A DNA stretch of 64,000 nucleotides. Source: Candidatus Nomurabacteria bacterium (GTDB taxonomy: Bacteria; Patescibacteriota; Minisyncoccia; Phycocordibacterales; UBA918). The position numbers were made by a program, and so were the translations under genes. A model generated the notes under the pieces. It saw nothing but the letters and a program-made list of their open reading frames with translations. It was not told the DNA's origin and did no database searches. Where the stretch lies: assembly GCA_023898565.1 (NCBI GenBank), contig CP060228.1, forward strand, positions 624,594-688,593, written 5' to 3'. Positions 5,278 through 36,067 of this stretch are shown here, one piece after another (position 1 is the stretch's first letter; each line of letters opens with the position of its first letter).

Positions 5278-5279
5278 GG

Positions 5280-7202: not shown

Positions 7203-7218
7203 TGATTTAGGTGAATTG

Positions 7219-7863: not shown

Positions 7864-7920
7864 AAAAAGTTACTACGTTGGCACTAGTATACGAAAATTT
7901 TTAAGTGAAAACAAATTTTT

Positions 7921-7962
7921 GGAAATATGCGTGTCGCACAAAGTGCGGCACGCATATTTCCA
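7921..7962. terminator. 19-bp near-perfect hairpin between lepB and the upstream membrane-protein gene
   Basis: GGAAATATGCGTGTCGCAC-AAA-GTGCGGCACGCATATTTCC with a T/A-rich flank. Confidence 0.5.
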
Positions 7963-7997
7963 AAAGAAAACGCACCCAATCGGGTGTGTGAATGATT

Positions 7998-8576: not shown

Positions 8577-8622
8577 TGGGTTGCTATTTCGCAGGTGCCA
8601 CCGTTGCTGCTAAAATAAACAC

Positions 8623-9210
8623 ATGCACTATATAGTCCCACTCGGTAATCCAGGCGATAAGTATCAAGACACTCGCCATAATGTCGGTTGGCAAGCGATA
8701 GATTTTTGTATTGGTGCTTGGCGTTTGCCGTCTTTGGTGGAGTCGGGTGGACTGTCAGGACGTCTTACCGAAGGGGTGGTGCAAGGTGGCGAAGTAACGA
8801 TTCTCTATCCAACCACCTTTATGAATAATTCTGGCAGCGCTGTGCAGAAGTTGGTACCGAAAGGTGCGACAGGACAGCTGATTGTGATACATGATGACGT
8901 TGATTTGCCGCTTGGTGAAATAAAAGTTACGCAAGGGAAGGGGGCCGGTGGCAATAACGGGGTGTCGTCGATTATTGAAAAGCTTGGCTCGAAGGATTTT
9001 GTGCGGGTGCGCATCGGGATTGCGCCAAAGAGTTTTTGGACTGGGAAGACGAAGCGGCCCACTGGAGGCGGCCCACTGGAGCGCTTTGTGCTTAAAGCGT
9101 TTACAAGTAGCGAACAAAAGCAGTTGGTAGAAGTGTTTCCACAAGTGCAGCGGGCGATTGAGACCATTGTGGCTGACGGTGTGACGAAGGCGATGAATCA
9201 GTGTAATTAA
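8623..9210 (+). CDS. pth: peptidyl-tRNA hydrolase
   Basis: MHYIVPLGNPGDKYQDTRHNVGW with the catalytic His in the NPG..Y..TRHN context. Confidence 0.9.
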   Translation: MHYIVPLGNPGDKYQDTRHNVGWQAIDFCIGAWRLPSLVESGGLSGRLTEGVVQGGEVTILYPTTFMNNSGSAVQKLVPKGATGQLIVIHDDVDLPLGEIKVTQGKGAGGNNGVSSIIEKLGSKDFVRVRIGIAPKSFWTGKTKRPTGGGPLERFVLKAFTSSEQKQLVEVFPQVQRAIETIVADGVTKAMNQCN

Positions 9211-9293
9211 AAAATTGCGTGACCGTAGGTCACGCAATTTGATGCTCTGTGCCACAATCTAAAAAAAGAATGAATGTAGGTAGATTATCTTCC

Positions 9294-9515
9294 TTAGTCG
9301 TTCTCATTCTCGTATCGGTAGTGCAGCCAGAGATCGCCGAATGATTCTTCGGTGGTTTTTAAAAACATTACCCAGACGCCGTAAATGGTTAGTACGATAA
9401 AGGTTTCGTTTGGAACTCCAGTTGCGTTGAGCAGTATGGCTGAGGCTGTGTAAAGAGCGCTGATGGTAAAGAATATGCCAATAACGCACCAGTCATCGAA
9501 GGGATCATATTCCAT
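9294..9515 (-). CDS. small membrane protein (73 aa), hypothetical
   Basis: Two hydrophobic helices. On the minus strand there is a TTGACT-17-TAAGTT promoter-like sequence and a GGAG SD 8 nt before the ATG. The gene follows the rpsA terminator. Confidence 0.45.
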   Translation of the reverse strand: MEYDPFDDWCVIGIFFTISALYTASAILLNATGVPNETFIVLTIYGVWVMFLKTTEESFGDLWLHYRYENEND

Positions 9516-9576
9516 GATTATTCTCCAAAGTTTCCGGTGGTAACTTAAGTGTATTTGGGTGATTAGTCAATGTAGT

Positions 9577-9621
9577 AAAACAAACCGGCCGGGACCCTTT
9601 GGGTCCCGGCCGGTTTGTTTT
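9577..9621. terminator. 18-20-bp perfect hairpin terminator after rpsA
   Basis: AAACAAACCGGCCGGGACCC-TTTG-GGTCCCGGCCGGTTTGTTT. Confidence 0.65.
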
Positions 9622-9634
9622 AGTTCACCAACGC

Positions 9635-10741
9635 TTACGCGTTGCCTTCCTTGAATGAAAGGGTCATCTTCTGTTCAGATGGCTCGAAGAGCGTAATCTT
9701 GAACTTGTAGACATTACCGAGTGAAAGAGCAGCCTTGAGCTTCTCTTCAGTTTCAAATTCTGAAACGTGAACGAGACCTGCTACACCTTCTTCGATTGAT
9801 GCAAGTGCACCGTGCTTGTTGTACTTAATCACAACTGCGTCTACTACCTGGTCCTTCTGGTACTTCTTACCAGCTGTTACCCATGGGTTTTCTTTAAGCT
9901 GCTTGATTGAGAGTGAGATCTTGTCATCCTTCACTTCAATCACCTTTACGCTTACCTTATCACCCACCTTGTAGAGCGCCTTGGTGTCTTCTACGAGACC
10001 CCAGTCGAGTTCAGAGATGTGTACGAGACCTTCAAGACCTGGTTCGAGCTTAACGAATACACCAAAGTCTACAGCGCCAGTAACTTCACCTTCTACGACG
10101 TTACCAACTTCGTACTTGTTTACCTTCTCTTCCTTTTCCTGCTTTTCTTCAAGCCCCTTCTCAGAGAAGATAAGCTTGTGTTCTTTAGGATCAGCCGTGA
10201 TCATTACTACTGAAAGGTGCTTACCAACGAGTTCGTTGAGCGCAGTAAGGATCTTGTCCTTGTCGCCATCAGTAACGCGTGGGTAATTTTCAGCTGAAAG
10301 CTGTGATGCAGGGAGGAATCCCTGGATGCCCTGCCAGTCGATGATAAGACCGCCTTTGTTGGCTTCCTTCACCTCGAGGCTAAGAACAGTAGCGTTCTTA
10401 ACAGCTGCTTCGGCATCAGCCCAGATGAGTGCCTGACGAGCTTCCTTGAGTGAGAGCTCAATGTAGCCATCTTCGTTGTCGGTAGTTACTACCTTAGCGT
10501 CGATGCTGTCGCCTACATTCACCTTGCGAAGAATATCGCGGGCGTTCATGTATTCACGACCATAAATAAGACCAGTACCAAATGGGGTAACGTCGATGTA
10601 CACGCGAGCGCGTCCAATCGCTGATACGACACCTGATACGATTTCTCCATCCTTTGGAGCAGCTGGTGTTTCGGCCAAAACCTTGTCCATCACACCTGAA
10701 GCGACAGCAGCGCTGTCGCTGGATTTTCCAAATCCAAACAT
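9635..10741 (-). CDS. rpsA: 30S ribosomal protein S1, short form with 4 S1 domains
   Basis: Repeated S1/OB motifs, for example GEVTGAVDFGVFVKLEPGLEGLVHISEL. Confidence 0.9.
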   Translation of the reverse strand: MFGFGKSSDSAAVASGVMDKVLAETPAAPKDGEIVSGVVSAIGRARVYIDVTPFGTGLIYGREYMNARDILRKVNVGDSIDAKVVTTDNEDGYIELSLKEARQALIWADAEAAVKNATVLSLEVKEANKGGLIIDWQGIQGFLPASQLSAENYPRVTDGDKDKILTALNELVGKHLSVVMITADPKEHKLIFSEKGLEEKQEKEEKVNKYEVGNVVEGEVTGAVDFGVFVKLEPGLEGLVHISELDWGLVEDTKALYKVGDKVSVKVIEVKDDKISLSIKQLKENPWVTAGKKYQKDQVVDAVVIKYNKHGALASIEEGVAGLVHVSEFETEEKLKAALSLGNVYKFKITLFEPSEQKMTLSFKEGNA

Positions 10742-10908
10742 TGTATTTCTTTGTTATTTCCGACGACACGCGTCCGCGCAACTGTTGCTCGTGGCCATGT
10801 CCATGAGCGCGGGGTTAAACGTGTGTCGCTAGAAGCTATTAATTACCTAAAAGGTGTGCAAAATATAGCAGAACGTAGGGAATTGTCGAGGGTGCGTGAG
10901 TCAGAAAG

Positions 10909-11001
10909 CCGAGCCGCCTCCAGTTTTTCACACGCTCCGATGTTTGCCGAGTAGCTTGGGCGCACATTCTCCGCGGACGCTCAAAACTGGAGGCGGCTCG
11001 G
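10909..11001. repeat. conserved ~93-nt hairpin element, copy A: a 19-bp perfect outer stem enclosing a conserved core
   Basis: Stem CCGAGCCGCCTCCAGTTTT / AAAACTGGAGGCGGCTCGG. The core begins TCACACGCTCCGATGTTT and ends CTCCGCGGACGCTCA, identical to copy B at 12365-12453 while the outer stems differ. Confidence 0.6.
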
Positions 11002-11008
11002 TTCGGAC

Positions 11009-11040
11009 AAAAAAGAGCGCGATACTTGCGTATCGCGCTC
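11009..11040 (-). terminator. intrinsic terminator (minus strand) of the 11065..11436 unit
   Basis: Minus sense: GAGCGCGATAC-GCAA-GTATCGCGCTC followed by TTTTTTG. Confidence 0.65.
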
Positions 11041-11064
11041 AAAGCAGAAGAACAGATGAAGTTT

Positions 11065-11436
11065 TTAGACGAGCTCAAATCGGGTCGGTTCGGACCGCCG
11101 CAAGTTGCGGCGATTGCATCGCTGATTGCGACTGTTGGATTCGTGCGCACGCTTTGTCCAGTGGTGGAGCGTGTTGCGTTCGATAGACCAAAGGCGAGCC
11201 TCAAGCCCGTTTTCGATCATGCGAACTTCCTTCTTTCGAGCACAGCTTGAGCCGCTGAAGCTCGGTTCACGAACTTCCTTGCCGGCCACCACTTCAGTCG
11301 TGATGGCCTCGACAGGCTTGGCCGGGTGACGCTTCTTTTTGAGCGTCACCCGAGCCCGATTTTTCGGATTCAGGCGGAGAACTTCCGGCATGTGTTGCTG
11401 AAGGGCGGGGTCAGTGCTGTAGAAGGTGGTGTACAT
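11065..11436 (-). CDS. hypothetical basic protein (123 aa) with a consensus promoter and SD
   Basis: Lys/Arg-rich, no recognisable domain. It is preceded on the minus strand by AGGAGA-5nt-ATG and a TTGACA-16-TATAAT promoter. An antisense 65-aa ORF (11056-11250, +) overlaps it. Confidence 0.45.
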   Translation of the reverse strand: MYTTFYSTDPALQQHMPEVLRLNPKNRARVTLKKKRHPAKPVEAITTEVVAGKEVREPSFSGSSCARKKEVRMIENGLEARLWSIERNTLHHWTKRAHESNSRNQRCNRRNLRRSEPTRFELV

Positions 11437-13742: not shown

Positions 13743-16214
13743 ATGCCGAAAAAGACCACTGCACCCGAAGTTCCTGAAGTGCCAAAGCAAGGAATTGTCG
13801 CTCAAAGCATCACCAGTGAAATGGAGAATGCGTACCTCGACTACGCGATGTCGGTAATTACGCAGCGCGCACTTCCTGATGTGCGTGACGGACTAAAGCC
13901 GGTGCACCGCCGCATTCTGTATTCGATGCGTCTCAATGGCTTGACCGCATCAGCCAAATTTCGCAAGTCGGCGACGGTAGTAGGAGACGTGCTTGGTAGT
14001 TTTCACCCGCACGGTGACGCCTCGGTATATGAGGCGATGGTAAAGCTCGCACAGCCATTTTCGACACGCTATCCGCTCGTGATTGGTCAGGGTAACTTCG
14101 GTTCGATCGACGGCGACAGCGCTGCGGCCTATCGTTACACTGAGGCTAAAATGTCACGCATTTCTGAAGAAATGCTTCGAGATCTGGAAAAAGACACAGT
14201 CAACTGGCGTCCAAACTACGACGGTACCAAAAAGGAGCCCGAAGTATTGCCAGCGGCGGCACCAAACCTTTTGTTGCTTGGTTCGCTTGGTATTGCAGTG
14301 GGTATGGCGACCAATATCCCGCCACACAATCTCCGCGAAGTCGCCAATGCAACCGCGCATCTTATTGATGATCCAGACGCGACAACCGAGGATCTTTTGA
14401 AGCATGTGCAGGGGCCAGATTTTCCAACCGGCGCGATTGCGTTCGATAAAAAGGCGATTTCGCAAGCCTACACCAACGGCCGTGGCGGTGTGGTAGTGCG
14501 TGGTGAGGCTGAGATTGTCGAAGACAAGCGGGGCGCCTTCTCTATCGTAATCACTTCGATTCCGTATCGCGTCAACAAGGCCGATATGCAGGAGAAGATT
14601 GCTAATCTCGTGCGCGAAAAGAAAATTGAAGGTATTCGCGAAATGCGTGACGAATCAACCGACGATATCCGTGTGGTGATTGAGCTCAAGACCGGCGCCC
14701 AGCCACAGACCGTGCTCAATAAGCTCTACAAGCACACGCAGCTAGAAGACACCTTCCACTACAACATGGTGGCGCTCGTTGATGGCGTGCCGCAAACACT
14801 CTCGCTAAAGGCAATTCTCCAGGAGTATGTAAAGCACCGCGCTGAGGTGATTCGTCGCCGTACGCAGTACGATTTAAATAAAGCCAAAGACCGCGAGCAT
14901 ATCTTGCTAGGTCTTAAGAAGGCGCTTGATCACATTGATAAGATTATCAAATTGATTCGTGCCGCCAAGGACGTGCCAACTGCGCACGCCGCACTTATGA
15001 AGGAGTTCAAATTCTCTGCGATTCAGGCACAGGCGATTCTTGATATGCGACTTCAGAAGCTTGCTGGACTTGAACGCAAGAAGATTGAAGACGAACTCAA
15101 GGCGGTGCAGAAGCTGATTAAGGAGCTTGAAGCGATTTTGAAGAGCAAAGCTAAGATGATGAGTATCGTAAAGTCTGAACTCCTCGAAGTGGCTGAGAAG
15201 TACGGTGATGATCGTCGTACGAAGATTGTAAAGGGAGGCGTGAAGCAGCTTTCGCAAGAAGATCTGATTCCAGACGAAGAGTCAGTGCTCGTACTTACCC
15301 AAGGGGGCTACGTCAAGCGTACCAATCCATCTGAATACAAGGTGCAGAAGCGCGGCGGTGTCGGCGTAGTTGATCTCAATACTAAGGAAGAAGACGTGGT
15401 AACTACGCTTATTACCACGTCAGCCCACAGCGATCTCCTCTTCTTCACTGACTTCGGTAAGGTCTATCAGTGCAAGATGTTTGAAATTCCTGAGGGCCGC
15501 AAGGCGACCAAGGGTAAGTCAATTATGAACTTCCTCTCAATGGCGGCTGAAGAGCGCGTAACGTCAGTCTTGGCAGTGCGCAAGGAAGATTGGGAAGGTG
15601 ACTGGTCACTCATGATGGTCACCAAGAACGGTGTCGCTAAGAAGAGCGACGCGGCTGCCTTTAAGGACGTTCGCCGCAGTGGTCTTATTGCGATTACGCT
15701 TAAAGACGACGATTCACTCATTGCTGCGATGTTTGTGGGTGCGAAAGACGAAGTGTCGCTCATTACGGAGAAGGGCCAGTCTATCCGCTTCAAGGAAAGT
15801 GATGTACGTCAGATGGGCCGCACCGCCTCTGGTGTGGGCGCCATGAAGCTTTCTAAGGGTGATGTGATTGTCTCAGCTGATGTGATTCAGGGCGGTGAGA
15901 AAGATAAGCAGGTTTTGGTAGTAACCGAGCATGGGTATGGTAAGGCAACGCCAGCAAAGGAATTTAAGGTCCAAAATCGCGGCGGCTCAGGTATTAAGGC
16001 GGCTAAGGTGACTGATAAGACTGGTAAGATCGTGCGCGGACTTATTATTACCGATGAAGAGCAGGCGGAAGGCGAGCTTGTGATCATGAGTAAGAAGGGG
16101 CAAGTGATTAAGTTGCCACTGAAGGATGTGCCGGCCCTCGGACGTGATACGCAGGGCGTGCGCGTAATGAAGATGCGAGCAGGAGATTCTATCGCTAGCG
16201 TGGTGTTTGTTTAA
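13743..16214 (+). CDS. gyrA: DNA gyrase subunit A
   Basis: [33 protein letters not shown] with the active-site Tyr region, plus C-terminal beta-pinwheel repeats. Confidence 0.9.
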
Positions 16215-16226
16215 CACGCACTTGTG

Positions 16227-16352
16227 CCATCGGGCGGACTAATTTTCAGGCACGAATCAAGTTCTCCGCTCGCTTTCCGGTTTTAATAAAGAGGCTTCGC
16301 CTCTTGACAAAAACCGGGCTCCGCGAGGCCCGAAAATTAGTTCGTCCGATGG
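16227..16352 (+). ncRNA. candidate structured RNA element downstream of gyrA: a 21-bp closing helix with G-U pairs around two internal hairpins
   Basis: CCATCGGGCGGACTAATTTTC ... GAAAATTAGTTCGTCCGATGG with two G-U wobbles. Internal hairpins are CCGGTTTT..AAAACCGG and AGAGGC-TTC-GCCTCT. An intrinsic terminator follows at 16377-16409. Confidence 0.35.
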
Positions 16353-16376
16353 CTGAAGATGTATTGAGGGAGAAAT

Positions 16377-16409
16377 GCGGCGGGACCTTCGGTCCCGCCG
16401 CTGTCTTTT
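16377..16409 (+). terminator. intrinsic terminator
   Basis: GCGGCGGGACC-TTCG-GTCCCGCCGC followed by TGTCTTTT. Confidence 0.65.
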
Positions 16410-16454
16410 CACATAAACCAAAAATTCCACCTATCTCTGGTGTATAATAATCGC

Positions 16455-17003
16455 ATGAATACACCAATTGGCGGTCGGTTTGTCATGCCGGATGTGGTCG
16501 CATCACATTTTCACCTTAATGAGGGTGATTTAGTAGCAGATTTTGGCGCTGGTAGCGGTTTTTTCTTAAAAGCGCTTTCAAAAGCCGTGGCCGATACTGG
16601 TCGGGTTTATGCTTGTGAAATTCAGAAGCAATTGGTAGAAAAACTTGGTGAACTGGCGCGACTTCAAGGGCTTGGTAATGTGTATCCGCTTTGGTGTGAC
16701 CTTGAAGAAACAAACGGCATTAAAATCGGCACTGGTGAATTGGATGCGGCAATTTTGGTCAACACCCTCTTTTTGATTGAAGATAAGCAAGCTGCTGTAA
16801 AAGAAATGGGTCGCGCACTACGTAGCGGGGGTAAGTTTTTTGTTATTGACTGGACTGAGTCATTCGCTGGCATGGGGCCACAGCCACAAAATGTCATAAC
16901 TGCATCAGAGGCGACAGTGCTATTTGAGGCGAATGGATTTGTGCTTGAGCGTGAGTTTCCGACTGGTGATCATCACTATGGATTAGCTTTTCGTAAGATA
17001 TGA
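16455..17003 (+). CDS. class I SAM-dependent methyltransferase
   Basis: Motif I DFGAGSGFF. The ORF-track start at 16440 is GTG; the ATG at 16455 is preceded by TGGTGTATAAT (an extended -10) 6 nt upstream, which suggests a leaderless mRNA. The stop overlaps the next start (ATGA). Confidence 0.7.
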   Translation: MNTPIGGRFVMPDVVASHFHLNEGDLVADFGAGSGFFLKALSKAVADTGRVYACEIQKQLVEKLGELARLQGLGNVYPLWCDLEETNGIKIGTGELDAAILVNTLFLIEDKQAAVKEMGRALRSGGKFFVIDWTESFAGMGPQPQNVITASEATVLFEANGFVLEREFPTGDHHYGLAFRKI

Positions 17004-18310
17004 AACTCAGACCCTTTGAATTAGCATTGGTGGTTATCTTTGGTGGCATGATGATGGCGGCACTCATTATGCTTAAGGTGTATCAGCCGCCGGCAGATCC
17101 CAATGATCCTGCCGTGGTCTTTGATGGTCAGGTAACTATTTGGGGTGTGTTGCCGAGTGGTGAAATTGGTAGTTACCTTGGAGAGCTTGCCGGCGAAAAT
17201 CCTGCCTATGGACAAATTACATATCGTCAGTATTCTCCAGAAGAATTCAATTCAGTATTGGTCAATGCTTTGGCTGATGGTCGGGGTCCAGATTTGCTCC
17301 TTATTTCTCATGAGCAACTCGTACAGATGCGCCCGCGCATTCAACCAATTTCATATGAATCATACCCACTTCGTGATTTTAAAAACAATTACATTGACGG
17401 AGCGGAGATTTTTGCACTGAGTGATGGTCTCTACGGAATGCCTATTGCGGTTGATCCGTTGGTGATGTACTGGAATCGAAATGTTCTCTCTAACGAAGGC
17501 TTTTTGACTGCGCCAAAAACATGGGAGAGCTTGGTGAATGTTATGTTTCCAGCATTGATTGATCGAGGATTTGACCGAGTGATCAACCGCAGCGTGGTGG
17601 CTATGGGCGAATACGGAAACGTACGTAATGCTTTTGGAATCGTTTCCGCATTGTTGATACAGCAAGGTTCACAGGGTGTGGTTGACGTAGATGGAGAATA
17701 CCGTATTCGTCTGCGAAATTCTGTCGCAGCAGACGTTGATCCTTTGTATGCCGCCGCTGATTTCTACACTCGATTTAGCCGTCCAAACAACTCTTTGTAT
17801 TCATGGAATCGTTCTTTTGTGGAGGATCGTCAACAGTTCATCGGTGAGGATTTAGTGTTTTATTTTGGTTACGGAAGTGAAGCGAGTCAAATTGAACGCA
17901 TTAATCCAAATCTTAGTTTTGATATTGCAGAAATGCCACAAGGTGAATCTGCCACGCTCAGACGAACGTATGGTCGGTACTACGCATTGGTCGCGTTAAA
18001 ATCATCAGATAATTTAAACGGTGCTTTGGCTGTAATGTCAAACCTGGCCACTTCGGAGAGGTCAGCTGAAATTGCAAGGCGCATCAAGATGGTGCCGGTA
18101 TACCGGAGCTTGGTTGCTGCAGGTAGTAACGACACAATTGGCCGAGTAACATATTATACGGCACCAGTAACGTTTGGCTGGCTTAATCCAGATTTGCAGG
18201 CTTCAGAGGCGTATTTTGAAGCTGCAATGCAAGACATCAACGAAAACAGATCATCGGTAGATGGTGGGGTGTCTGATTTGGTGGGACGTTTGTCAGCTGA
18301 GTATAAATAA
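17000..18310 (+). CDS. membrane-anchored extracellular solute-binding protein-like (SBP family 1-like)
   Basis: N-terminal TM segment, then VTIWGVLPSGEIGSYLGELAGENPAYGQITYRQYSPEEFNSVLVNALADGRGPDLLLISHEQL, which resembles an SBP_bac_1 N-lobe. No permease or ATPase genes are nearby. Confidence 0.5.
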   Translation: MKLRPFELALVVIFGGMMMAALIMLKVYQPPADPNDPAVVFDGQVTIWGVLPSGEIGSYLGELAGENPAYGQITYRQYSPEEFNSVLVNALADGRGPDLLLISHEQLVQMRPRIQPISYESYPLRDFKNNYIDGAEIFALSDGLYGMPIAVDPLVMYWNRNVLSNEGFLTAPKTWESLVNVMFPALIDRGFDRVINRSVVAMGEYGNVRNAFGIVSALLIQQGSQGVVDVDGEYRIRLRNSVAADVDPLYAAADFYTRFSRPNNSLYSWNRSFVEDRQQFIGEDLVFYFGYGSEASQIERINPNLSFDIAEMPQGESATLRRTYGRYYALVALKSSDNLNGALAVMSNLATSERSAEIARRIKMVPVYRSLVAAGSNDTIGRVTYYTAPVTFGWLNPDLQASEAYFEAAMQDINENRSSVDGGVSDLVGRLSAEYK

Positions 18311-18316
18311 AGTGTT

Positions 18317-18697
18317 ATGACTAACTATGTAGAGTTATTAAAGAAGCAGGTTGTATCGAAGAGCGCTTCGGTGATGGTCGCGATTCTTGCTCTTACGCCG
18401 CTTGTCTCTTCAGCCCAGATTAAATTTAATTTAAAATCACCGCTTGATCCCAGTATCGTTACTGTTGAAGGTTTGTTGGTGGCAATTCTTAATGTGTTCA
18501 TTGTGATTGCTACGCCGATTATTGTACTGTTTATTATATACGCCGGTTTTATGTATGTGACAGCCAGAGGAAACGCCCAGCAGGTTGAGCAGGCTACAAG
18601 AGCGTTAACATACGCAGTCATTGGAGGGGTCATCTTGCTCGGTGCGGTGGCTATAGCCGGTATTGTTAAAGGTGTGGTTGATGCGTTTGCGGCTTAA
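18317..18697 (+). CDS. TrbC/VirB2-like type IV secretion pilin family protein, paralog 1
   Basis: Signal/TM segment plus the shared core VIATPIIVLFIIYAGFMYVTARGNAQQVEQA and a second TM helix, as in the CPR T4SS-pilin family. Confidence 0.6.
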   Translation: MTNYVELLKKQVVSKSASVMVAILALTPLVSSAQIKFNLKSPLDPSIVTVEGLLVAILNVFIVIATPIIVLFIIYAGFMYVTARGNAQQVEQATRALTYAVIGGVILLGAVAIAGIVKGVVDAFAA

Positions 18698-18717
18698 TGT
18701 AGTTCGTACACAGTAGT

Positions 18718-18984
18718 ATGTCTGAGCCTTTTAAAAATCCTCTCACCTTTACGTCGATCACTGAAATGATTGTTGCTATCATGAATGTGGTGATTATCAT
18801 TGCTACGCCGATTATCGTTTTCTTTTTAATTTACGCCGGTTTTATGTATGTGACTGCGCAAGGGAATCCGCAGAAGATCGAGATTGCTTCTCGATCGTTA
18901 CTGTACGGTATTATTGGCGGCGTTATTATTTTGGGATCGGTAGCGATTTTGGCGATTGTCAAAAATGTTGTCGGCGCATTTTAA
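18718..18984 (+). CDS. TrbC/VirB2-like pilin family protein, paralog 2
   Basis: IIATPIIVFFLIYAGFMYVTAQGNPQKIEIA is nearly identical in core to paralog 1. Confidence 0.6.
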   Translation: MSEPFKNPLTFTSITEMIVAIMNVVIIIATPIIVFFLIYAGFMYVTAQGNPQKIEIASRSLLYGIIGGVIILGSVAILAIVKNVVGAF

Positions 18985-19002
18985 TACAGATAATTAAAAA
19001 AT

Positions 19003-19254
19003 ATGAAACCAACTACCTATTCAGAACTTGTGGAACTCATCATTAATATTATAAATCTAGCCATTCCAGCTCTCTTTGGTGTTGTCTTTGTGTTTTTTAT
19101 CTGGAAAATGATTGATTCTTGGGTGATTCGTGGTGGCGAAGAATCAGCGCGTGAGGCAGGGAATAAGTACGCTGTTGCAGCAGTGATTGCATTTGTGCTC
19201 ATGATTAGCGCGTGGGGCATCGTAGCGCTCATCAAAGATTCTATTTTTGGATAG
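19003..19254 (+). CDS. small two-TM protein, divergent member of the pilin-like array
   Basis: 83 aa with two hydrophobic helices flanking a charged loop (RGGEESAREAGNK). It sits within the array. Confidence 0.45.
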   Translation: MKPTTYSELVELIINIINLAIPALFGVVFVFFIWKMIDSWVIRGGEESAREAGNKYAVAAVIAFVLMISAWGIVALIKDSIFG

Positions 19255-19256
19255 GT

Positions 19257-19646
19257 ATGAGTACAGTACGCGTGTGGTCTGTGATAGCAATGAGTGCCTT
19301 TGTTTGGCCGTATTCAGTTGCGCATGCGCAAATTGCGAATTCTAGCAATGGTGGATCGCTCCAGTCGTTGCTCATTAATATTTTACATTTTATTAACTCA
19401 ACGATTATCCCCTTTATTATCGGTATTGGGTTTTTATACTTCGTGTGGGGTGTCTTCCTCTACTTTATTGTCGGCGGTGCAGACGAGGAAAAGCGAGCTA
19501 AAGGGCGAAGTTATGTGGTCTCAGCGACAGTGGGATTTGTGGCGATCATTATCTTTTTCGGTGTTATTAACATGCTTGTTTCAAGTACTGGTCTTGAGGG
19601 AGAGTCGCTCCAGTACATGCCGGTAATCCCGCTTATTGGCTCATAG
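19257..19646 (+). CDS. TrbC/VirB2-like pilin family protein, paralog 3
   Basis: Signal peptide ...SVAHA, then IIPFIIGIGFLYFVWGVFLYFIVGGADEEKRAKGRS and a second TM helix. Start trimmed to the ATG at 19257. Confidence 0.6.
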   Translation: MSTVRVWSVIAMSAFVWPYSVAHAQIANSSNGGSLQSLLINILHFINSTIIPFIIGIGFLYFVWGVFLYFIVGGADEEKRAKGRSYVVSATVGFVAIIIFFGVINMLVSSTGLEGESLQYMPVIPLIGS

Positions 19647-19741
19647 TGATATCAGTGTATAACTCTTACAAGATGACTTTTTTTGTCCTATACTATATAG
19701 GTAGACGTTATAACGTTGTTAATTTATAAATATAAATACGT

Positions 19742-20131
19742 ATGAAAAAAATCGGATATCTAGCTGCAAGTGCAAGCACGTTGTTGCTGCCAGCACTTGC
19801 GTCCGCTCAGCTTGCTAATTCCACTAATGGTGATGGTGGGGCGCTGCAGGATTTGATGCAGAACATCCTAGAGTTTGTAAATGGAACCATTATTCCATTC
19901 ATTGTTGGTATCGGCTTCCTTGTATTCGTATGGGGAATGTTCAAGTACTTCATTGCGGGTGGTGCAAATGATGATGCTAAGGAGCAGGGAAAGAGCCTTA
20001 TGATTTATGCGACTCTTGGCTTCGTGCTTATCATTGTATTCTGGGGTATCGTCAATCTTCTTGCTGATACTACTGGTCTTGCTGAAGACTACAACAACAA
20101 CTACACACCAACAGTGGTTGTTCCTAGCTAA
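19742..20131 (+). CDS. TrbC/VirB2-like pilin family protein, paralog 4
   Basis: Signal peptide ...ALASAQ, then IIPFIVGIGFLVFVWGMFKYFIAGGANDDAKEQGKS and a second TM helix. Confidence 0.6.
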   Translation: MKKIGYLAASASTLLLPALASAQLANSTNGDGGALQDLMQNILEFVNGTIIPFIVGIGFLVFVWGMFKYFIAGGANDDAKEQGKSLMIYATLGFVLIIVFWGIVNLLADTTGLAEDYNNNYTPTVVVPS

Positions 20132-20133
20132 TT

Positions 20134-20191
20134 GCTTGCTATATCAACAAAAAGCGCTGGCAAGCCAGCGCTTTTTGTTGATATAGCAAGC
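20134..20191. terminator. 28-bp perfect palindromic hairpin between convergent genes
   Basis: GCTTGCTATATCAACAAAAAGCGCTGGC-AA-GCCAGCGCTTTTTGTTGATATAGCAAGC. Confidence 0.6.
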
Positions 20192-20211
20192 TCCTGCTTT
20201 TTGTGATGGTC

Positions 20212-20919
20212 TTACCAAAACTTCTTGGGTAAGACACGGTACTTTAAGAGCACCAGACCGGCCTCGAGCGCATCCTTGAAGATAATTTTTTTTCCCTCTT
20301 CGGGACTGCGAGGGGTGTATGAGATAGGAAGTTCAGTAATGTTGTAACCGTTGCGTAGCAGCTTTGCGGTTACTTCTGGGCAAAAGCTGAAACGTTCTTC
20401 TTTGAGTTTTAATGTTTGCAAAATATCACGTCGTATCAGCTTGTAGCAAGTTGGTTCGTCGGTAATCTGGCTCCCATATAGAATATTGGTGAGCAAAGAA
20501 AGTGATATGCCTCCATAGTAAAAAATAGTTCTTTTTTCGATATGTAGGTTGCTTTTTGCTCCCAATCGACGTGATCCGTACACAGCTGGTAAATCATGCT
20601 CTACCGCATATTTTAGAAGCGCAGCAATGTCACGTGAATCATATTCTAAATCGGCGTCTTGGATAACTACATACTCACCAGAAGCTGCTGCCAGGCCGGT
20701 CCGGATGGCACCGCTTTTCCCTCGATTTCTTTTGTGTTCAATGAGGGTGATAGGGTGGCTAGATTTTTTAAGGAGCGCAATGGTGGCGTCTGTTGATCCG
20801 TCGTCAACCACAATAATTTCTTTTTTGATACTGCCAAAATCAACAGCACATAATGCGTCCAGCATTTGTTCGATTGTACCTTCTTCATTATAGGCGGGAA
20901 TGATAATTGAGAGTTTCAT
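20212..20919 (-). CDS. GT2-family polyprenyl-phosphate glycosyltransferase (DPM1/GtrB/ArnC-like)
   Basis: MKLSIIIPAYNEEGTIEQ...VVDDGSTDAT...VIQDADLEYD carries the GT-A DXD motifs. Confidence 0.85.
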   Translation of the reverse strand: MKLSIIIPAYNEEGTIEQMLDALCAVDFGSIKKEIIVVDDGSTDATIALLKKSSHPITLIEHKRNRGKSGAIRTGLAAASGEYVVIQDADLEYDSRDIAALLKYAVEHDLPAVYGSRRLGAKSNLHIEKRTIFYYGGISLSLLTNILYGSQITDEPTCYKLIRRDILQTLKLKEERFSFCPEVTAKLLRNGYNITELPISYTPRSPEEGKKIIFKDALEAGLVLLKYRVLPKKFW

Positions 20920-20953
20920 TTGGTTCAGTACTATTGATACATTTTACTATAAA

Positions 20954-21370
20954 CTATACTTTCATGTCCCCAAAGGCATAAAATTTAATGAGTAAAAAGT
21001 TAATCATAAAACTAAAACCAAGTGCGATGATTTTGCTCATCATGACGGGAAAAAGAAACAGTTCAACACAGATTACGACTGTGCCGAGGTTTGCTAAAAA
21101 GCCGACCGCACTTGAGGCAAAGTGTTTTACAAATGTAGCGCCAAAAGAACTTTTGCGCGAGAAGATAAGGAGGTTTGATAGTAAAAAATTGGTGATAGTG
21201 CCGGTTACAAACCCTCCTGAAACTGCAAAAGTGTAGTGCCAAGGCACTGTCTCCAATAGGGCGTATACAGTAGACAGGTCAATCACTGCCGCCATGCCAG
21301 CCACGAAAAAGTACGCAGCAAATTGCTTGCTTACATAGCGGGTACAGATAAATTGATACAACGCTCGCAT
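20954..21370 (-). CDS. GtrA-family small membrane protein (glycolipid flippase-like)
   Basis: 138 aa, four TM segments, C-terminal INFLLIKFYAF resembling the GtrA signature. Adjacent to the GT2 gene. Confidence 0.7.
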   Translation of the reverse strand: MRALYQFICTRYVSKQFAAYFFVAGMAAVIDLSTVYALLETVPWHYTFAVSGGFVTGTITNFLLSNLLIFSRKSSFGATFVKHFASSAVGFLANLGTVVICVELFLFPVMMSKIIALGFSFMINFLLIKFYAFGDMKV

Positions 21371-21403
21371 AATGTTCTGTCTTTACTATGTTACTATGTT
21401 ACT

Positions 21404-23134
21404 ATGTGGCTTAAAAAATATGGTGTGTACGGAGTAGTTTTTATGATTGTCTTCGTATTTTTATTGTGTGCAAAATATCCATTCGCTAATTTTAGCGGCA
21501 CTCGAGATTCATATTATCATACTGGCCATTCGATGGCGTATAAGTTTCACACCCCGTTTAACTATCCGCAGCTGACGTATCTAAATGAATACCCTTCAGA
21601 TCCGTGGTGGGGCTATCACCAGCTTTTGGCTCTGAGCTATACCGGTCTTGAGCAAGGTGATATTAAAGCAATAGTCACCAGGACAATCCTGCTGCATATT
21701 TTTTTGAGTTCGCTACTTATTGTGAGTATTACGCTGTTGGCAGTTGAGTACTACAGACATATGCAGCCTCTATACAAGCGTCTGTTACGTGTGCACAGCA
21801 TTCCGGACGCGCAAACGATCATCTCTGCCGCAACAGTTGCGAAGGTTGTCCTTCCAGTTTTGTTTTTTTTAACGTCGCTCCTGTTTTTGTATCGCGCAAC
21901 TTTTATGGAGCGACCACACGTGCTCATGATCATGTTTGTGGTCATGGGGATGTATTTTTTGCTTAAGCGGCAGTATTGGTGGTTGTCTCTGATGGCAGTT
22001 TTGTCGGTTCTCTGCTATTCGATGTCACTCTTTATATTTTTGCCAGCGACGGTCACGCTGGTTGGTTGGTTGCTTGTGGATCGGTCAAAAACAGGTTTGG
22101 TGGAGGCGATGAAGCCGTTTTGGTATACGGTATTCGGTTTTGTGATTGGGGTGTTACTACATCCGGCGTCGTGGGGGTATTTGCTAAATGGAGTGTTTTT
22201 CCATGCGTTTGCCATACTGCAGAGCTTTTCTTGGTTTATTGATTCTGAATTATCAGTGTTGGGTATACCGGGTGAAATGATGTACAATAAATCGTTAACA
22301 TTTAGTGCTCCGTTGGTTATTCTTACTACCGTATTTACGGGCATAGTATGGCACCGTTTGGTATCGGGTAGAAAGGAATTTCAAGTTTTATCAAGACAAC
22401 ATCGGTCATTGTTTACTATTGAGGCGGGTTTTTCAGTAGTGGCGTTAGCACTCGGACTCGCATCTTTTTTTGTATTGAGAACAGCAGAATACAGCTCACC
22501 GTTTTTATCGGTAGGTTTTGTTGCTTTCTTTTTCGGTTTCCTTTTGCCGGTACTAAAGTTGCTGCATGAAAAAATTATCGAGGATAAGAGCGAGTTCTCA
22601 TCGTTTTACAGACAAGCAGTTCGGGTGTCTGTGGTGTGGTATCGTTCATCTTTACTAAGAGGATTGTTTGTGGTGTGTATTTGCCTCCTCATTGTTTCTG
22701 TATTTACCTATGGCAAAACAAGAGCAAATCTTTACCCGATGGATCGGTTATTAGGTGCGAATAATTTCTTGGCAGGAGAAGAGGGTCGCGGAGTTATTTT
22801 AGGTAATGATTTTGCGTCTTATGCGCAAGGGTCATTCCAAACTCCTGACCACCTATATGCACAGGGCATGGATCCGCGAATGACGTATTTTTTCGATGAG
22901 CAGGTAGGTTTTTGTGTCAACGCTTTTCTGAGAGCAGTCAGAACAGACGGTGTACATTTTGACGGTGATGCGTGTATGCCAGAAGTAGTAGAGCGATTTA
23001 ATATTACCCACTTTTTGCTCGACGGTACTGACGCTACTGATTCTGTGCTCAACTATTACGAAGAACGACTTAATCTAGAATTGGTTTACCAAGACGAAAA
23101 GTACCCGCAAGTAAAAGTGTATAGGGTAGAGTAG
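21404..23134 (+). CDS. large polytopic membrane protein, putative GT-C fold glycosyltransferase (GtrC/YfhO/PMT-like third component)
   Basis: About 577 aa with ~12 predicted TM segments. It is divergent from the gtrA-like/GT2 pair. The ORF-track start at 21323 is TTG; the ATG at 21404 follows a TTACTATG x3 tandem. Confidence 0.45.
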   Translation: MWLKKYGVYGVVFMIVFVFLLCAKYPFANFSGTRDSYYHTGHSMAYKFHTPFNYPQLTYLNEYPSDPWWGYHQLLALSYTGLEQGDIKAIVTRTILLHIFLSSLLIVSITLLAVEYYRHMQPLYKRLLRVHSIPDAQTIISAATVAKVVLPVLFFLTSLLFLYRATFMERPHVLMIMFVVMGMYFLLKRQYWWLSLMAVLSVLCYSMSLFIFLPATVTLVGWLLVDRSKTGLVEAMKPFWYTVFGFVIGVLLHPASWGYLLNGVFFHAFAILQSFSWFIDSELSVLGIPGEMMYNKSLTFSAPLVILTTVFTGIVWHRLVSGRKEFQVLSRQHRSLFTIEAGFSVVALALGLASFFVLRTAEYSSPFLSVGFVAFFFGFLLPVLKLLHEKIIEDKSEFSSFYRQAVRVSVVWYRSSLLRGLFVVCICLLIVSVFTYGKTRANLYPMDRLLGANNFLAGEEGRGVILGNDFASYAQGSFQTPDHLYAQGMDPRMTYFFDEQVGFCVNAFLRAVRTDGVHFDGDACMPEVVERFNITHFLLDGTDATDSVLNYYEERLNLELVYQDEKYPQVKVYRVE

Positions 23135-23154
23135 TATAAAGTTGAGAACCTTCC

Positions 23155-23568
23155 ATGTGGTATCATTTTAGAATGAAACAGTTCTTGCGTACGCATCTCT
23201 ACTTATTTTTGCTTTTTGTTTTGCCGGCAGTAACATTCGCAGCGCCGCCGCCGGGGACGACTGAGGCACAAGCGTTTGTTGACAAGCTCAACTCAGTAAT
23301 TTTGTTCCCAACCATTGCACTTCTCAGTGCCGTGGCGTTCTTTGTATTTTTGTGGGGAACTGCTCAGTACTTCATGAACGCAAATAATGACGCAGCCCGG
23401 GAGCAAGGGGTGAAGCACATCACTTGGGGAATTATTGGCTTGGTAGTGATGTTATCTGCATTTGCTATCTTGGAGCTTGCTACCACAACTGTCGGATTGA
23501 GTAATGAGCTCGATTGCGCTAATGATCCAGCAAACTGCGCCAATAATCCATTTGTGGTGCCTACGTAG
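23155..23568 (+). CDS. TrbC/VirB2-like pilin family protein, paralog 5, with a Cys-containing C-terminal tail
   Basis: Signal peptide, then ALLSAVAFFVFLWGTAQYFMNANNDAAREQGVKH and a second TM helix; the tail contains CANDPANCANNP. Confidence 0.55.
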   Translation: MWYHFRMKQFLRTHLYLFLLFVLPAVTFAAPPPGTTEAQAFVDKLNSVILFPTIALLSAVAFFVFLWGTAQYFMNANNDAAREQGVKHITWGIIGLVVMLSAFAILELATTTVGLSNELDCANDPANCANNPFVVPT

Positions 23569-23591
23569 TGGTGTATAAAAGAAGGCCCGAG

Positions 23592-23622
23592 CGCTTGCGC
23601 TCGGGCCTTTTTAAAAGAACGT
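23592..23622. terminator. hairpin terminator
   Basis: AAGGCCCGAGCGC-TT-GCGCTCGGGCCTT followed by a T-run. Confidence 0.6.
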
Positions 23623-23632
23623 GAAGGAGAGG

Positions 23633-24550
23633 CTACGTCGCCGGTACCGCTTTCACAAAGATAGTTACCTTTGTGATGTCCGGGGTTTTACCCCAGCCAC
23701 TCGTGTACTCGTACTGTACCGACAGACGCAGTGCCAAACGGTACACACCTTGGATGCTGCCGGAATAAGTGAACGGCTTTTCGATTATGGCATAATCCTC
23801 TACCTTGAGGCTACGATGTTTGTGCTGCTCCTTAAATTCAGGAGCAAAATCGTAGACCAGTCTGTGGCCCGGGACCGGTGCTAAGAAGAACTCTTTCGTG
23901 TCGTTACAGACCACGATGTTTTGTCCTTCCGGGAAGACGTCAATGATGCCGCCTTCTTTGCCACAGCCGGCTGGCTTGTCGCCAAAGGCTACCTCGACCG
24001 CGCGAACAATTTTCTCGTCCGCATCGGTCATTGCCAAGGTTACACCGCCGAGAGTTCCAACGACCATGAACACTGCTGCGCCTCCGAACAGAATGATGAG
24101 CAGAAGTCCGATGTTGCCCAGCAAAATATCTACCAGACTATCGTTCCGCCATTTCTTCGGTCCTTTCGGTTTTTTCGGCCACACCATCCAGAGGATGAAA
24201 AGGCCGATGCCGACGGCGACTAAGTCAATCCACCAGCGGTTGGGCTCTACCTCAGCGGGGCTGAAGTGAAGTGCAGTGCCGGTGGGTGTGCTGGCGAACC
24301 AGGTGCCGACTTCGTTAAGGATGTTGGTCCAGTTTGCATATACTGCCAAGAAGGCAGCAACGGCAAGCAAGATTTTCAGCCACTTCAGCTTCATCAGTGA
24401 ACCGATGGAGCTGTTGATATTGCTTCTCAGATTCCCGGTCAAGGTTGGACCGGGTTTCGTACCTTGGGTGCGGAACAAACGATTGATGAATGTTCCGGCC
24501 ATGATGAGTGCTCCGCAGAACACCAGAAACACGATCCAGCCTGTACTCAT
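23633..24550 (-). CDS. hypothetical membrane protein: N-terminal multi-TM half plus a C-terminal soluble domain
   Basis: 305 aa. It lies 12 nt downstream of the SPFH gene on the same strand, so they are probably an operon. Confidence 0.5.
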   Translation of the reverse strand: MSTGWIVFLVFCGALIMAGTFINRLFRTQGTKPGPTLTGNLRSNINSSIGSLMKLKWLKILLAVAAFLAVYANWTNILNEVGTWFASTPTGTALHFSPAEVEPNRWWIDLVAVGIGLFILWMVWPKKPKGPKKWRNDSLVDILLGNIGLLLIILFGGAAVFMVVGTLGGVTLAMTDADEKIVRAVEVAFGDKPAGCGKEGGIIDVFPEGQNIVVCNDTKEFFLAPVPGHRLVYDFAPEFKEQHKHRSLKVEDYAIIEKPFTYSGSIQGVYRLALRLSVQYEYTSGWGKTPDITKVTIFVKAVPAT

Positions 24551-24562
24551 GATGTGTTACTC

Positions 24563-25723
24563 CTATTTTCTGAGACTAGTTATGAGTGCGGTAATGAGAG
24601 TGCTGACATCGCCTCCTTTTGCTACCGCATCGACCAGCGCTCGATTTTCAAGAATCGCTTTTTGCAGAGTTGGGTCAAGGTTCATGAGAACTTTGGCCAT
24701 ACTTTCTTGGCCAGCTGCTACGCCTTGATCGCTCAAGGCGCGGGCACGACCTTCTTGACGTCCGATTGCCGGAGCATGCAATTTGCTACGTTGCTCAGGC
24801 GGCAATTCATCCTCGAAATCTGTAATGTCGATCTTGAGAATGATGATGCCGAGGTCGGCCAGTTTCTTGCCCGAGTAGCTGCAGTTGTCGATGGTGTCAA
24901 AGACGTAATCTTTAACACCCTTTTGAATGAGAGTTGCCACCAGGCTGGTGATTGCCTCCTTGGTATCGTTTGCTTTTTGCTTGGCCCAGATTTGCTTGTC
25001 GATATTGCCGATGACATCGTCGAGCGTTACTTTACTGCGGACGACATTTCGTGCTACCGACTTGAGCGCCTGGTCGAGCAAGACGTTCCAAGACTCCGTG
25101 AGATACAGTGCCTCTTCAATCTTGTCCGGGTCAATCATGACCTGGGCCGAGCCTTCAACGGTGAAGGGGACGGTTTGAATCTCTGCTCCGGCGTACTCGA
25201 AGTACCAGGTAAATGGCGCAACGCGTACGTGGTTGGAGTAGTACCCCGGTTCATCTTCTTTGATGACTCGGTAGACTCGTTTTCCGCCCTCTTCTTTCAC
25301 TTTGTATCGTGGCAAATCATACGTCTTCGGCTCAGTGAAATACGGCACGTAAACGTGCACTTTCGCAATGTTCCAGACGTATTGTTTGTACAACATCCAC
25401 AGACCGAAAAGAGCGTCAGAATGCACCGGCCCGCTTGCTTCGCCGTCGATAGCGTAGAAGAACCGGCCGGAATAGTCGATAGCAACTTTACGACCGGTGC
25501 CAACCTCGATGAACATTGAGATCTTATTGGGCTGATTAGGATCGTGCAGCAGCTTGTCTTTCATGAAAGGTGAAAGGAGGGCAAAAACCAAGATGGCCAG
25601 TGCAACTCCCGAGATTGCTGCTACTACAGACAGCCAGATGGTGAGCCAGATTTCGCTAGTCAGCGCAGCTACAACACCGAGCAGAGACATGACGATTATG
25701 AATCCGCCAAAGATGACGTTCAT
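24563..25723 (-). CDS. SPFH/band-7 (stomatin/flotillin/HflKC-like) domain membrane protein
   Basis: N-terminal TM helices. The core VMIDPDKIEEALYLTESWNVLLDQALKSVARNVVRSKVTLDDVIGNIDKQI matches the SPFH pattern, followed by a coiled-coil-like tail. Confidence 0.55.
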   Translation of the reverse strand: MNVIFGGFIIVMSLLGVVAALTSEIWLTIWLSVVAAISGVALAILVFALLSPFMKDKLLHDPNQPNKISMFIEVGTGRKVAIDYSGRFFYAIDGEASGPVHSDALFGLWMLYKQYVWNIAKVHVYVPYFTEPKTYDLPRYKVKEEGGKRVYRVIKEDEPGYYSNHVRVAPFTWYFEYAGAEIQTVPFTVEGSAQVMIDPDKIEEALYLTESWNVLLDQALKSVARNVVRSKVTLDDVIGNIDKQIWAKQKANDTKEAITSLVATLIQKGVKDYVFDTIDNCSYSGKKLADLGIIILKIDITDFEDELPPEQRSKLHAPAIGRQEGRARALSDQGVAAGQESMAKVLMNLDPTLQKAILENRALVDAVAKGGDVSTLITALITSLRK

Positions 25724-25948
25724 GATGTTTCTCCTTCAATTTTCAAAGCAGCGTGTTTGCTGCGAACAATTTTGGCTGGGAAAGCCCCAGCTGAATCTGC
25801 TAGTATAATATCATAAATAAATTAAAAAGTCAAGTTATAGTGTATTGGTACAGGGCTATAAATAAGGCTACTTTTAAGCTATTTGCTTAAAAGTAGTGAA
25901 TTTGGAGTGAGACTAGATTAAATATGGCCTTGGTTAGCTTCGTGTGGT

Positions 25949-35901: not shown

Positions 35902-36067
35902 AGATACGTGATTGTCTCAAGGATTGTGCTTGAGTTGCAACAAAATAGCATATTTATTTCGTTTTTCAAAGCTTTAGTCACTCGGTGGTGTGGGTTGTGG
36001 ATGAGACAATGATCTGTATGACTAGGTGCTATACTAAATATATATTTGGTAATTTTATTTGAGAATT

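Follow-up and report, generated by a model that had tools for sequence, protein, structure and literature searches.

A gene triad within a pilin array of a Candidatus Nomurabacteria bacterium likely encodes an extracytoplasmic glycosylation system centred on an enzyme of an orphan GT-C family

Does a group of three genes embedded in an array of pilin genes encode a system that places sugars on the cell surface and, if so, are the pilins its target? The question is raised by positions 20212-23134 of a 64,000-nucleotide stretch of the genome of a Candidatus Nomurabacteria bacterium (assembly GCA_023898565.1, contig CP060228.1, positions 624,594 to 688,593; this whole stretch is hereafter called the window). 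An earlier note on this DNA had read the three genes as a GtrA-like, GT2 and GT-C-like module, possibly for the glycosylation of pilins or other surface proteins. All three genes lie next to one another where that note had placed them. A GT2 glycosyltransferase gene (20212-20919, minus strand) encodes a soluble protein of 235 residues (PF00535, E 9.5e-36) and lies beside the gene of a small GtrA/DPMS-type membrane protein (20954-21370, minus strand; 138 residues; PF04138, E 9e-15). The third gene (21404-23134, plus strand) diverges from the GtrA gene across a 33-bp spacer and encodes a large membrane protein of 576 residues; its ATG at 21404 matches the start of NCBI protein P0001, and a word-index search found its product to match without any difference a hypothetical protein from a 952-kb contig of a metagenome-assembled genome (MAG) of Candidatus Nomurabacteria. 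The reading of the triad was upheld by the Pfam matches of the two smaller proteins and, for the large one, by a confident structure model with GT-C matches. We consider it likely that the module is a three-component extracytoplasmic glycosylation system relying on an orphan GT-C family.

Searches with the large protein in Pfam and NCBIfam, with phmmer against the PDB and with a profile against the PDB gave nothing meaningful, designed helical proteins apart. None of 59 aligned family members matched a GT-C family of Pfam at E<=0.01, and the window protein matched none at E<=0.1. A word-index homology search returned the protein itself and one relative of 72% identity, nothing more, and a locus search with a 14-sequence alignment gave two genome loci and four metagenome loci. 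Searched exhaustively with HMMER, 1.84 billion cluster representatives yielded 68 relatives (E<=1e-3); those that a source names are entered as hypothetical proteins. The named sources are Parcubacteria, Kaiserbacteria, Nomurabacteria or unclassified bacteria, and every source that bears the name of an organism belongs to the candidate phyla radiation (CPR). No relative was found in viral contigs scanned with one peptide motif. Judged from these sequence searches, the protein belongs to an orphan family seen so far only in CPR/Patescibacteria, which would probably count as a new glycosyltransferase family.

The fold of the protein was predicted with AlphaFold (AF2). A single-sequence model reached a pLDDT of only 44 and was discarded; the model built on the 59-sequence alignment reached a pLDDT of 91.5 and a pTM of 0.92. 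Compared with the PDB by Foldseek, this model gave 12 matches at E<=1e-3, and all 12 are GT-C enzymes with a probability of 1.00. They comprise PglB (E 5.6e-7, query-normalised TM-score 0.37), AglB (E ~2e-6, 0.51-0.54), the human and yeast STT3 proteins (STT3A/B; E 3e-6 to 1e-5, up to 0.59), the C-mannosyltransferase DPY19 (E 4e-6, 0.53) and ALG9 (E 8e-5, 0.42-0.43). Later matches include ALG3, EmbB/C, AftB and PMT at E 0.1-0.7.

The earlier count of about 12 transmembrane helices was close, the model giving about 11 of them and one membrane-associated helix, with the N-terminus predicted inside. A first loop of 58 residues and an acidic C-terminal soluble domain of 135 residues (442-576) would lie outside. 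When positions conserved in at least 80% of the family are placed on this predicted topology, 26 of the 30 are external, four lie in transmembrane helices and none falls within the 97 cytoplasmic residues (Fisher p 3e-4). The nearly invariant D35, in a DDPYYH motif, stands directly after the first transmembrane helix, at the start of the first external loop. Further conserved residues are R164, R170-P171, Y205, E291, R359-x-x-E362-Y363 and, in the C-terminal domain, G488-M-D490-x-R492. GT-C enzymes rely on external Arg and Glu residues and on an Asp at the head of their first external loop. In the window protein, D35, H39, D66, H72, R164, R170, Y205, E291, R359, E362, Y363 and the G488-M-D490-x-R492 motif are candidate catalytic and substrate-binding residues, and the model as a whole is that of a putative outward-facing GT-C-fold enzyme. 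At residue 517 (about position 22952), the window protein has a Val where 85% of the family have a Cys. The position belongs to a C-x4-C-like pair in the outer domain, and a disulfide common to most relatives may be missing from the window allele.

Assignment to the established GT-C families failed. Neither the window protein nor its 59 relatives match PF02516, the oligosaccharyltransferase (OST, GT66) family, and the WWDxG motif is absent from the C-terminal domain. The sole WW of the protein lies in external loop 1 and, of these two residues, W68 alone is conserved. The same proteins gave no match to PF02366, PF13231, PF10034 or PF09586 that would place them with PMT (GT39), DPY19 (GT98) or YfhO.

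The other two proteins have the features expected of the donor side of a three-component system. The GT2 protein has its DDG motif at residue 39 and its DAD motif at residue 88; with a maximum hydropathy of 1.22, it has no transmembrane segment. Its best full-length sequence matches in the PDB are Pyrococcus furiosus DPMS (5mlz; residues 1-210, E 6e-15), ArnC and GtrB sll0501; the solved structures closest to it in sequence are thus enzymes that load a sugar onto polyprenyl phosphate. Partial matches to AglJ, PpgS (E 6e-15), ArnC and a Dol-P-hexose transferase were obtained in NCBIfam, none of which reaches its curated cut-off. By family and clade, the protein is predicted to be a polyprenyl-phosphate sugar synthase consisting of a DPMS/ArnC/GtrB-like catalytic domain without transmembrane helices of its own, in contrast to GtrB and ArnC. 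The GtrA-like protein has hydrophobic stretches at residues ~17-39 and 84-132, which amount to four transmembrane segments by the PF04138 match; by that match it would be the small membrane protein (GtrA, SMR or MATE) of such a system. Since PF04138 is also the transmembrane domain of DPMS, the GT2-GtrA pair is readable as a split synthase of the DPMS type, in which the GtrA-like protein can be read as the membrane anchor or lipid-binding subunit. It would be either this membrane partner of GT2 or a flippase for the lipid-linked sugar; the classical flippase role of GtrA-type proteins is itself unproven (PMC11127046).

The association of these genes was followed across the family. A GT2 gene adjoins the GT-C homologue in every sampled lineage except L010, a locus that also lacks pilins; the order of the genes varies, and their stop and start codons often overlap, among others on L009, L013-L018 and L021, contigs that are too short to inform on pilins. 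Because of this adjacency, the GT2/GT-C pair is a conserved unit and not a chance neighbourhood. Four lineages have the full triad, which occupies two distinct sites of the chromosome: besides the window, the GtrA gene adjoins the GT2 and GT-C genes in L007/L012, L019 and L008. L007/L012 and L019, whose GT-C proteins are 39% and 37% identical to the window protein, carry the GT2 and GtrA genes on one strand and the GT-C gene diverging from them, the whole being placed between (secE-)nusG and rplK (5127-9245 in L007/L012; 1165-5463 in L019). nusG and rplK are an adjacent pair in most bacteria. In both lineages the same cassette interrupts them, which shows that the triad moves as a unit. In L008 (28% identity) the order is GT-C, GT2, GtrA between a methyltransferase and a Fic gene.

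Other arrangements were also observed. L020 (4387-8806) and L022 (5506-9914) each have two tandem GT-C paralogs that share the GT2 gene between them. In L023, positions 3718-11243 form a small glycosylation island with two GT2/GT-C pairs, a DUF2304 gene, a methyltransferase and a classical GT-C of the PMT family, and three PF18895 pilin genes lie about 3 kb from the first pair. L024 reads rbfA-infB, GT-C, GT2, sulfotransferase, LPG_synthase_TM, Band_7, a 264-residue protein and six PF18895 genes. A conserved HAD-family protein with weak matches to phosphomannomutase (PF03332) is encoded near the GT-C gene in L009 (3358-4056), L020 (14707-15456) and L022 (10966-11709), and no homologue of it was found in the window; these genes near three family members are a weak hint that the sugar is mannose. 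A class I methyltransferase gene, divergently adjacent in L008, L010, L022 and L023, was considered as a further conserved partner and rejected: by phmmer, these proteins and the copy encoded in the window at 16440-17003 have no mutual similarity at E<=1e-3, and the methyltransferase is not counted as part of the system.

The window was then compared with its sister strain L001, whose gene content was recovered on contigs from six different samples (L001-L006; same locus as the window, pilins present). Flanking DNA is identical or nearly so, with 100% nucleotide identity over 15426-19625 and 99-100% over 23224-25800. Between these flanks, and against L001 positions 6240-9800, identity falls to 76-95% over 19626-20425, a stretch that covers pilin 5 and the GT2 3' end, returns to ~100% over 20426-21025 and falls again to 59-96% over 21026-23223. 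Between the two strains, GT2 does not differ over its first 185 residues, nor does GtrA over most of its length. The whole GT-C protein is only 72% identical despite its identical flanks; over residues 276-576 amino-acid identity is ~57% and dS, the synonymous divergence, is saturated. Where dS can be estimated (residues 276-441), the ratio of nonsynonymous to synonymous divergence (dN/dS) is ~0.14; the background gene infB has a dS of 0.34 and a dN of 0.004. On the saturated dS and the low dN/dS, positive selection in situ was rejected. The pattern reads as a recombination mosaic that imported a diverged allele, not as accelerated change in place, and it is centred on the C-terminal half of GT-C, so that the last transmembrane helices and the outer domain appear to have been swapped. 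Alternatively, it may stem from a chimeric assembly of the one MAG in which the window allele was seen. The mosaic parallels gtr loci, in which conserved gtrA and gtrB accompany a serotype-specific GT-C (PMC11127046): here too the donor-side genes are conserved and GT-C is variable.

Combined, these results indicate that every defining feature of a three-component system that can be tested in silico is present, at the level of predicted families and of the structure model. Each step of the mechanism that we propose is inferred from these predictions. At the cytoplasmic face, the soluble GT2, docked to the membrane by the four-helix GtrA/DPMS-type protein, would load polyprenyl phosphate with a single sugar taken from a nucleotide sugar. 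The lipid-linked sugar would be flipped across the membrane, perhaps by GtrA, perhaps by another protein, and GT-C, with its conserved residues on the outer face, would attach the sugar to a cell-surface acceptor. GT-C would then be the variable part of the system, the one that determines specificity. Several points weigh against this proposal. The GT-C assignment relies on a predicted structure, whose matches have TM-scores of 0.37-0.59 and sequence identities of 11-14%. The inside/outside topology is our own construction, derived from the DSSP helices of the AF2 model, hydropathy and the positive-inside rule. GT2 scores far under the curated cut-off of every NCBIfam equivalog. Lastly, the GtrA gene is adjacent in only ~4 of 17 lineages, which makes GtrA a non-obligatory neighbour.

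The acceptor is the second part of the question, and the pilin genes around the triad are the obvious place to begin. Six genes of the PF18895 T4SS_pilin family (T4SS, type IV secretion system) surround it on the plus strand: paralogs 1 (18317-18697), 2 (18718-18984), 3 (19003-19254), 4 (19257-19646) and 5 (19742-20131) on one side and paralog 6 (23173-23568) on the other. Five of the six exceed the PF18895 cut-off of 26.6 bits, paralog 6 with E 1.5e-7; paralog 4 stays under it at 21.3 bits and aligns with the others, with a strong match to a local hidden Markov model (HMM). Every paralog has two hydrophobic helices, in keeping with a hairpin architecture, and by the family test (PF18895/PF04956) the genes are predicted to encode TrbC/VirB2-like pilins. 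With six paralogs counted, the triad stands between paralogs 5 and 6 rather than between 4 and 5, where the earlier note had put it; likewise the Cys/Asn/Pro-rich C-terminal tail that it had noticed is real and belongs to the last paralog, which is 6 and not 5 (LDCANDPANCANNPFVVPT). An alternative ATG for paralog 6 at 23155 reads GTG in L001, whose gene was called from the MKQ codon; since the sister strain uses this second Met (MKQFLR...), which also gives a more typical signal peptide, 23173 is the likely start. Paralogs 4 and 5 have signal peptides, and their mature N-termini are rich in Asn, Ser and Gly and carry N-x-S/T sites.

The array fits the published description of VirB2-like pilin arrays in Patescibacteria, which hold 2-11 divergent genes, sometimes with non-pilin interrupters, and one of which is essential in a cultivated relative (PMC12102498). 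It differs from those arrays in that the main text of that study names no glycosylation genes as interrupters, and in having no adjoining virB4 inside the window.

The hairpins of the locus suggest how the genes are transcribed. A perfect 27-bp hairpin (20134-20191; -47.6 kcal/mol, z -9.8) lies between the converging pilin-5 and GT2 genes; it was overlooked by a consensus terminator scan and is the most indel-rich spot of the strain comparison. Probably it acts as a bidirectional terminator, with the pilin operon on one side and the GT2-GtrA unit on the other. A second hairpin, of 15 G+C-rich bp followed by a T run (23579-23612; -28 kcal/mol, z -4.9), lies 3' of pilin 6 and probably terminates both the GT-C/pilin-6 transcript and a converging gene, that of a 305-residue protein. 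In the 20-38 nt spacer between GT-C and pilin 6, neither a significant fold nor a hairpin was found, and the two genes are probably co-transcribed. From the positions of the hairpins, three units are likely. One holds pilins 1-5 behind a methyltransferase gene and the gene of a 436-residue protein, another the minus-strand genes GtrA and GT2, and the third GT-C with pilin 6.

Which acceptor do these data favour? The nearest structural neighbours of GT-C, the OST enzymes and DPY19, modify proteins, and an acceptor among surface proteins is for this reason slightly favoured. The system might instead modify a glycopolymer of the cell wall or membrane, or a glycolipid, its place inside the pilin array being incidental, as in GtrABC (O-antigen), CsbB/GtcA/YfhO (teichoic acids), PpgS/Rv3632/Rv3779 (arabinogalactan) or ArnC/ArnT (lipid A). 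We regard this as possible, if on the whole improbable. The three-part layout is a hallmark of such systems (PMC11127046), the cassette is carried as a whole to unrelated sites of the chromosome, and constant donor-side genes beside a strain-variable GT-C are what serotype-converting gtr loci display; moreover, the L023 and L024 members sit among envelope genes (PMT-family GT-C, DUF2304, sulfotransferase, LPG_synthase_TM). However, EmbB/C and AftB are matched at E 0.1-0.3 compared with 1e-6 to 1e-7 for OST and DPY19, and ArnT is not among the first 50 Foldseek matches. Genes for the biosynthesis of polysaccharides or teichoic acids were not found in the 64-kb window, and no envelope glycopolymer is known for these organisms in the literature covered.

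A dedicated glycosylation of the VirB2/TrbC-like pilins of the array, with the exposed tails of paralogs 4-6 at either terminus as the likely sites, is a tentative and rather unlikely reading. It is suggested by the position of the triad inside the array, and by the way GT-C runs into pilin 6 up to the strong terminator behind it. The N-x-S/T sites in the mature N-termini of paralogs 4 and 5 also count in its favour, as does the action of OST and DPY19 on proteins. It also draws on the other pilin arrays of the family. Scanned with the local pilin HMM (E<=0.01), loci outside the window lineage have pilins in L023 and L024 only, where PF18895 arrays lie 3-6 kb from GT-C members that are as distant as 23-27% identity; with the window lineage, arrays occur within 8 kb in three of the ~7 lineages whose flanks reach at least ~4-8 kb both ways. 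From the 441 arrays counted in roughly 3,035 assemblies (PMC12102498), ~0.02 arrays would be expected in the ~146 kb of GT-C neighbourhood outside the lineage, compared with the two observed. This rough estimate is suggestive and not rigorous, as it borrows the array definition of another study with a different mix of taxa and as L024 shares wider synteny with the window (rbfA-infB nearby) and is not an independent observation.

The same survey also speaks against the pilins. The closest relatives outside the lineage, with their cassette at nusG-rplK, have no pilin within 7 kb, and none was found in L008, L020 and L022, whose flanks extend at least 4-8 kb in both directions; synteny thus went against the earlier note, the module adjoining non-pilin genes elsewhere. 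Within the window, the 27-bp hairpin parts pilins 1-5 from the module, and the N-x-S/T sites of paralogs 4 and 5 are absent from paralogs 1, 2, 3 and 6. Pilin 5 has ten differences between the strains, clustered in its mature N-terminal tail (ANSTNGDGG compared with GDTNNGDAG), a pattern that might be counted for the pilin reading. However, as the changes lie inside the same recombination tract as GT-C and are physically linked to it, they prove nothing on function. That GT-C glycosylates exposed VirB2-like pilin tails and that allele swapping varies the sugar or the site, giving strain-specific pilus surfaces, is a doubtful extension. For the conjugative pili of bacteria, no report of glycosylation exists according to PMC9905601, and on the archaeal CedA1 pili diffuse density alone was seen; this supports the earlier statement that none is described for bacterial pilins of the VirB2/TrbC type. 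The link between pilins and GT-C is recurrent but facultative and is one of gene neighbourhood alone. The GT-C family as a whole is not tied to pilins; in the window lineage, the signal-peptide-bearing paralogs 4-6 are the first candidate acceptors. Of the earlier proposal, the glycosylation module is borne out and the pilins are not established as its target.

Two other identities were considered for the large protein. A polymerase or ligase of the Wzy, EpsG or WaaL type, acting on oligosaccharides linked to lipid pyrophosphate, is very unlikely: weak EpsG matches (PF14897) occur in two of the 59 family members (best E 2.7e-4), but no Wzy or WaaL structure is among the first 50 Foldseek matches, and the partner that recurs throughout is a GT2 of the DPMS/GtrB kind, which makes a single sugar linked to a monophosphate, and not a phosphoglycosyltransferase or a Wzx flippase. 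A VirB6/TrbL-like channel component of a T4SS, or a transporter serving the pilins, with GT2 and GtrA as unrelated neighbours, has in its favour the polytopic nature of the protein and its position among pilin genes, nothing else, and is effectively refuted by synteny and by the GT-C fold, on which the structure prediction proposed in the earlier note came down: PF04610 and other Pfam families gave no match, VirB6/TrbL is absent from the Foldseek matches, where transporters have probabilities below 0.15, the window ORFs (open reading frames) scanned against Pfam contain no VirB4, VirB6, VirD4 or other T4SS ATPase match, and the family is coupled to GT2 in nearly all lineages, mostly without pilins or T4SS genes.

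Several features lie near these genes. The surroundings in the window are housekeeping genes (gyrA, infB, rbfA, clpB, topA, ftsZ, ftsA and several tRNAs). A class I S-adenosylmethionine-dependent methyltransferase gene (16440-17003, plus strand), with a strong terminator upstream at 16377-16401, overlaps by 4 bp the gene of the 436-residue protein, which stops 6 bp upstream of pilin 1 (region 16440-18310, plus strand). This protein has one N-terminal transmembrane helix as an anchor and a weak MalE-like match (E 7e-4). The two genes appear to head the pilin operon. On the other side, converging on the array, 23633-25723 (minus strand) encodes the 305-residue protein, with four transmembrane segments, and a membrane-anchored protein of 386 residues, one homologue of which is named HflC-like by the Joint Genome Institute. 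The corresponding position in L023 (1091-3549) and L024 (13252-15487) holds a protein of 264-267 residues and a Band_7 (SPFH) protein; BLASTP between these and the window pair was negative, and hhalign gave a weak match (E 0.004, probability 8%). A seventh protein with a T4SS_pilin domain (PF18895, E 6.8e-11) is encoded at 36059-36928 (plus strand), 12 kb from the array and between tRNA-Tyr and tRNA-Trp; it is unusually long, with 289 residues of which ~180 are extra at the C-terminus. At 45241-48066 (plus strand), a 941-residue ORF beside dprA and topA has no Pfam match at E<=0.001.

The mechanism proposed here, with a lipid-linked sugar, its flipping and its transfer outside by a GT-C enzyme, is already well known, and the module itself is no surprise. 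What is new is a GT-C family without a Pfam, NCBIfam or solved-structure sequence relative, apparently confined to CPR/Patescibacteria, and the allelic mosaic within GT-C is a notable addition. The surface chemistry of the ultra-small CPR bacteria, which live attached to hosts, has hardly been explored; a conserved and strain-variable surface-glycosylation module, found beside VirB2-like pilin arrays in three lineages, gives a concrete handle on it. Were the pilins its target, they would be the first glycosylated bacterial pilins of the T4SS type and would overturn the picture of bacterial conjugative-type pilins as unglycosylated. Were the pilin tails modified and the alleles swapped, the strain-specific pilus surfaces would serve host recognition or phage evasion in these episymbionts, and the module would be the first functionally placed glycosylation system in CPR bacteria.

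How does the module compare with known systems? STT3, PglB and AglB (GT66) are its best structural matches (E 5.6e-7 to 1e-5) and share with the window GT-C an inside N-terminus, a long first external loop opening with a conserved Asp and an extracytoplasmic C-terminal domain. Unlike them, the window protein lacks PF02516 and WWDxG, and the motif of its C-terminal domain is G-M-D-x-R. As its partner is a DPMS/GtrB-like GT2, the donor would be a monosaccharide linked to a monophosphate and not an OST-type oligosaccharide linked to a pyrophosphate. Such a donor is used by the known DPY19 (GT98) and PMT (GT39) enzymes, which put a single mannose on proteins from dolichyl phosphate mannose (Dol-P-Man), the product of a DPMS-type GT2. 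DPY19 is among the top structural matches (E 4e-6), whereas PMT structures reach only E 0.4-0.7, and the window protein has none of the families PF10034, PF02366 and PF13231. GT2, a small membrane protein and GT-C also make up CsbB/GtcA/YfhO, which acts on Gram-positive teichoic acid, and PpgS/Rv3632/Rv3779, which places galactosamine (GalN) on mycobacterial arabinogalactan. The same logic thus operates in monoderm envelopes, and the window GT2 has its partial match to PpgS; in contrast, the window GT-C does not match YfhO (PF09586) or any other family. In P. furiosus DPMS (5mlz), a GT2 domain is fused to a GtrA-like domain of four transmembrane helices; the window GT2 aligns with it over residues 1-210, so that the same architecture recurs here at low identity and split over two polypeptides. 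To our knowledge, CPR bacteria lack lipopolysaccharide, unlike the hosts of gtr loci. Compared with GtrABC of Shigella and Salmonella, a concept from a review by Mann & Whitfield that PMC11127046 summarises, the window GT2 is without the C-terminal transmembrane helices of GtrB and the window GT-C has no detectable sequence relation to any type of GtrC; both nevertheless gather a GT2 synthase, a GtrA-family protein and a GT-C in one cluster, and in both the donor-side genes are constant between strains and GT-C is the part that varies.

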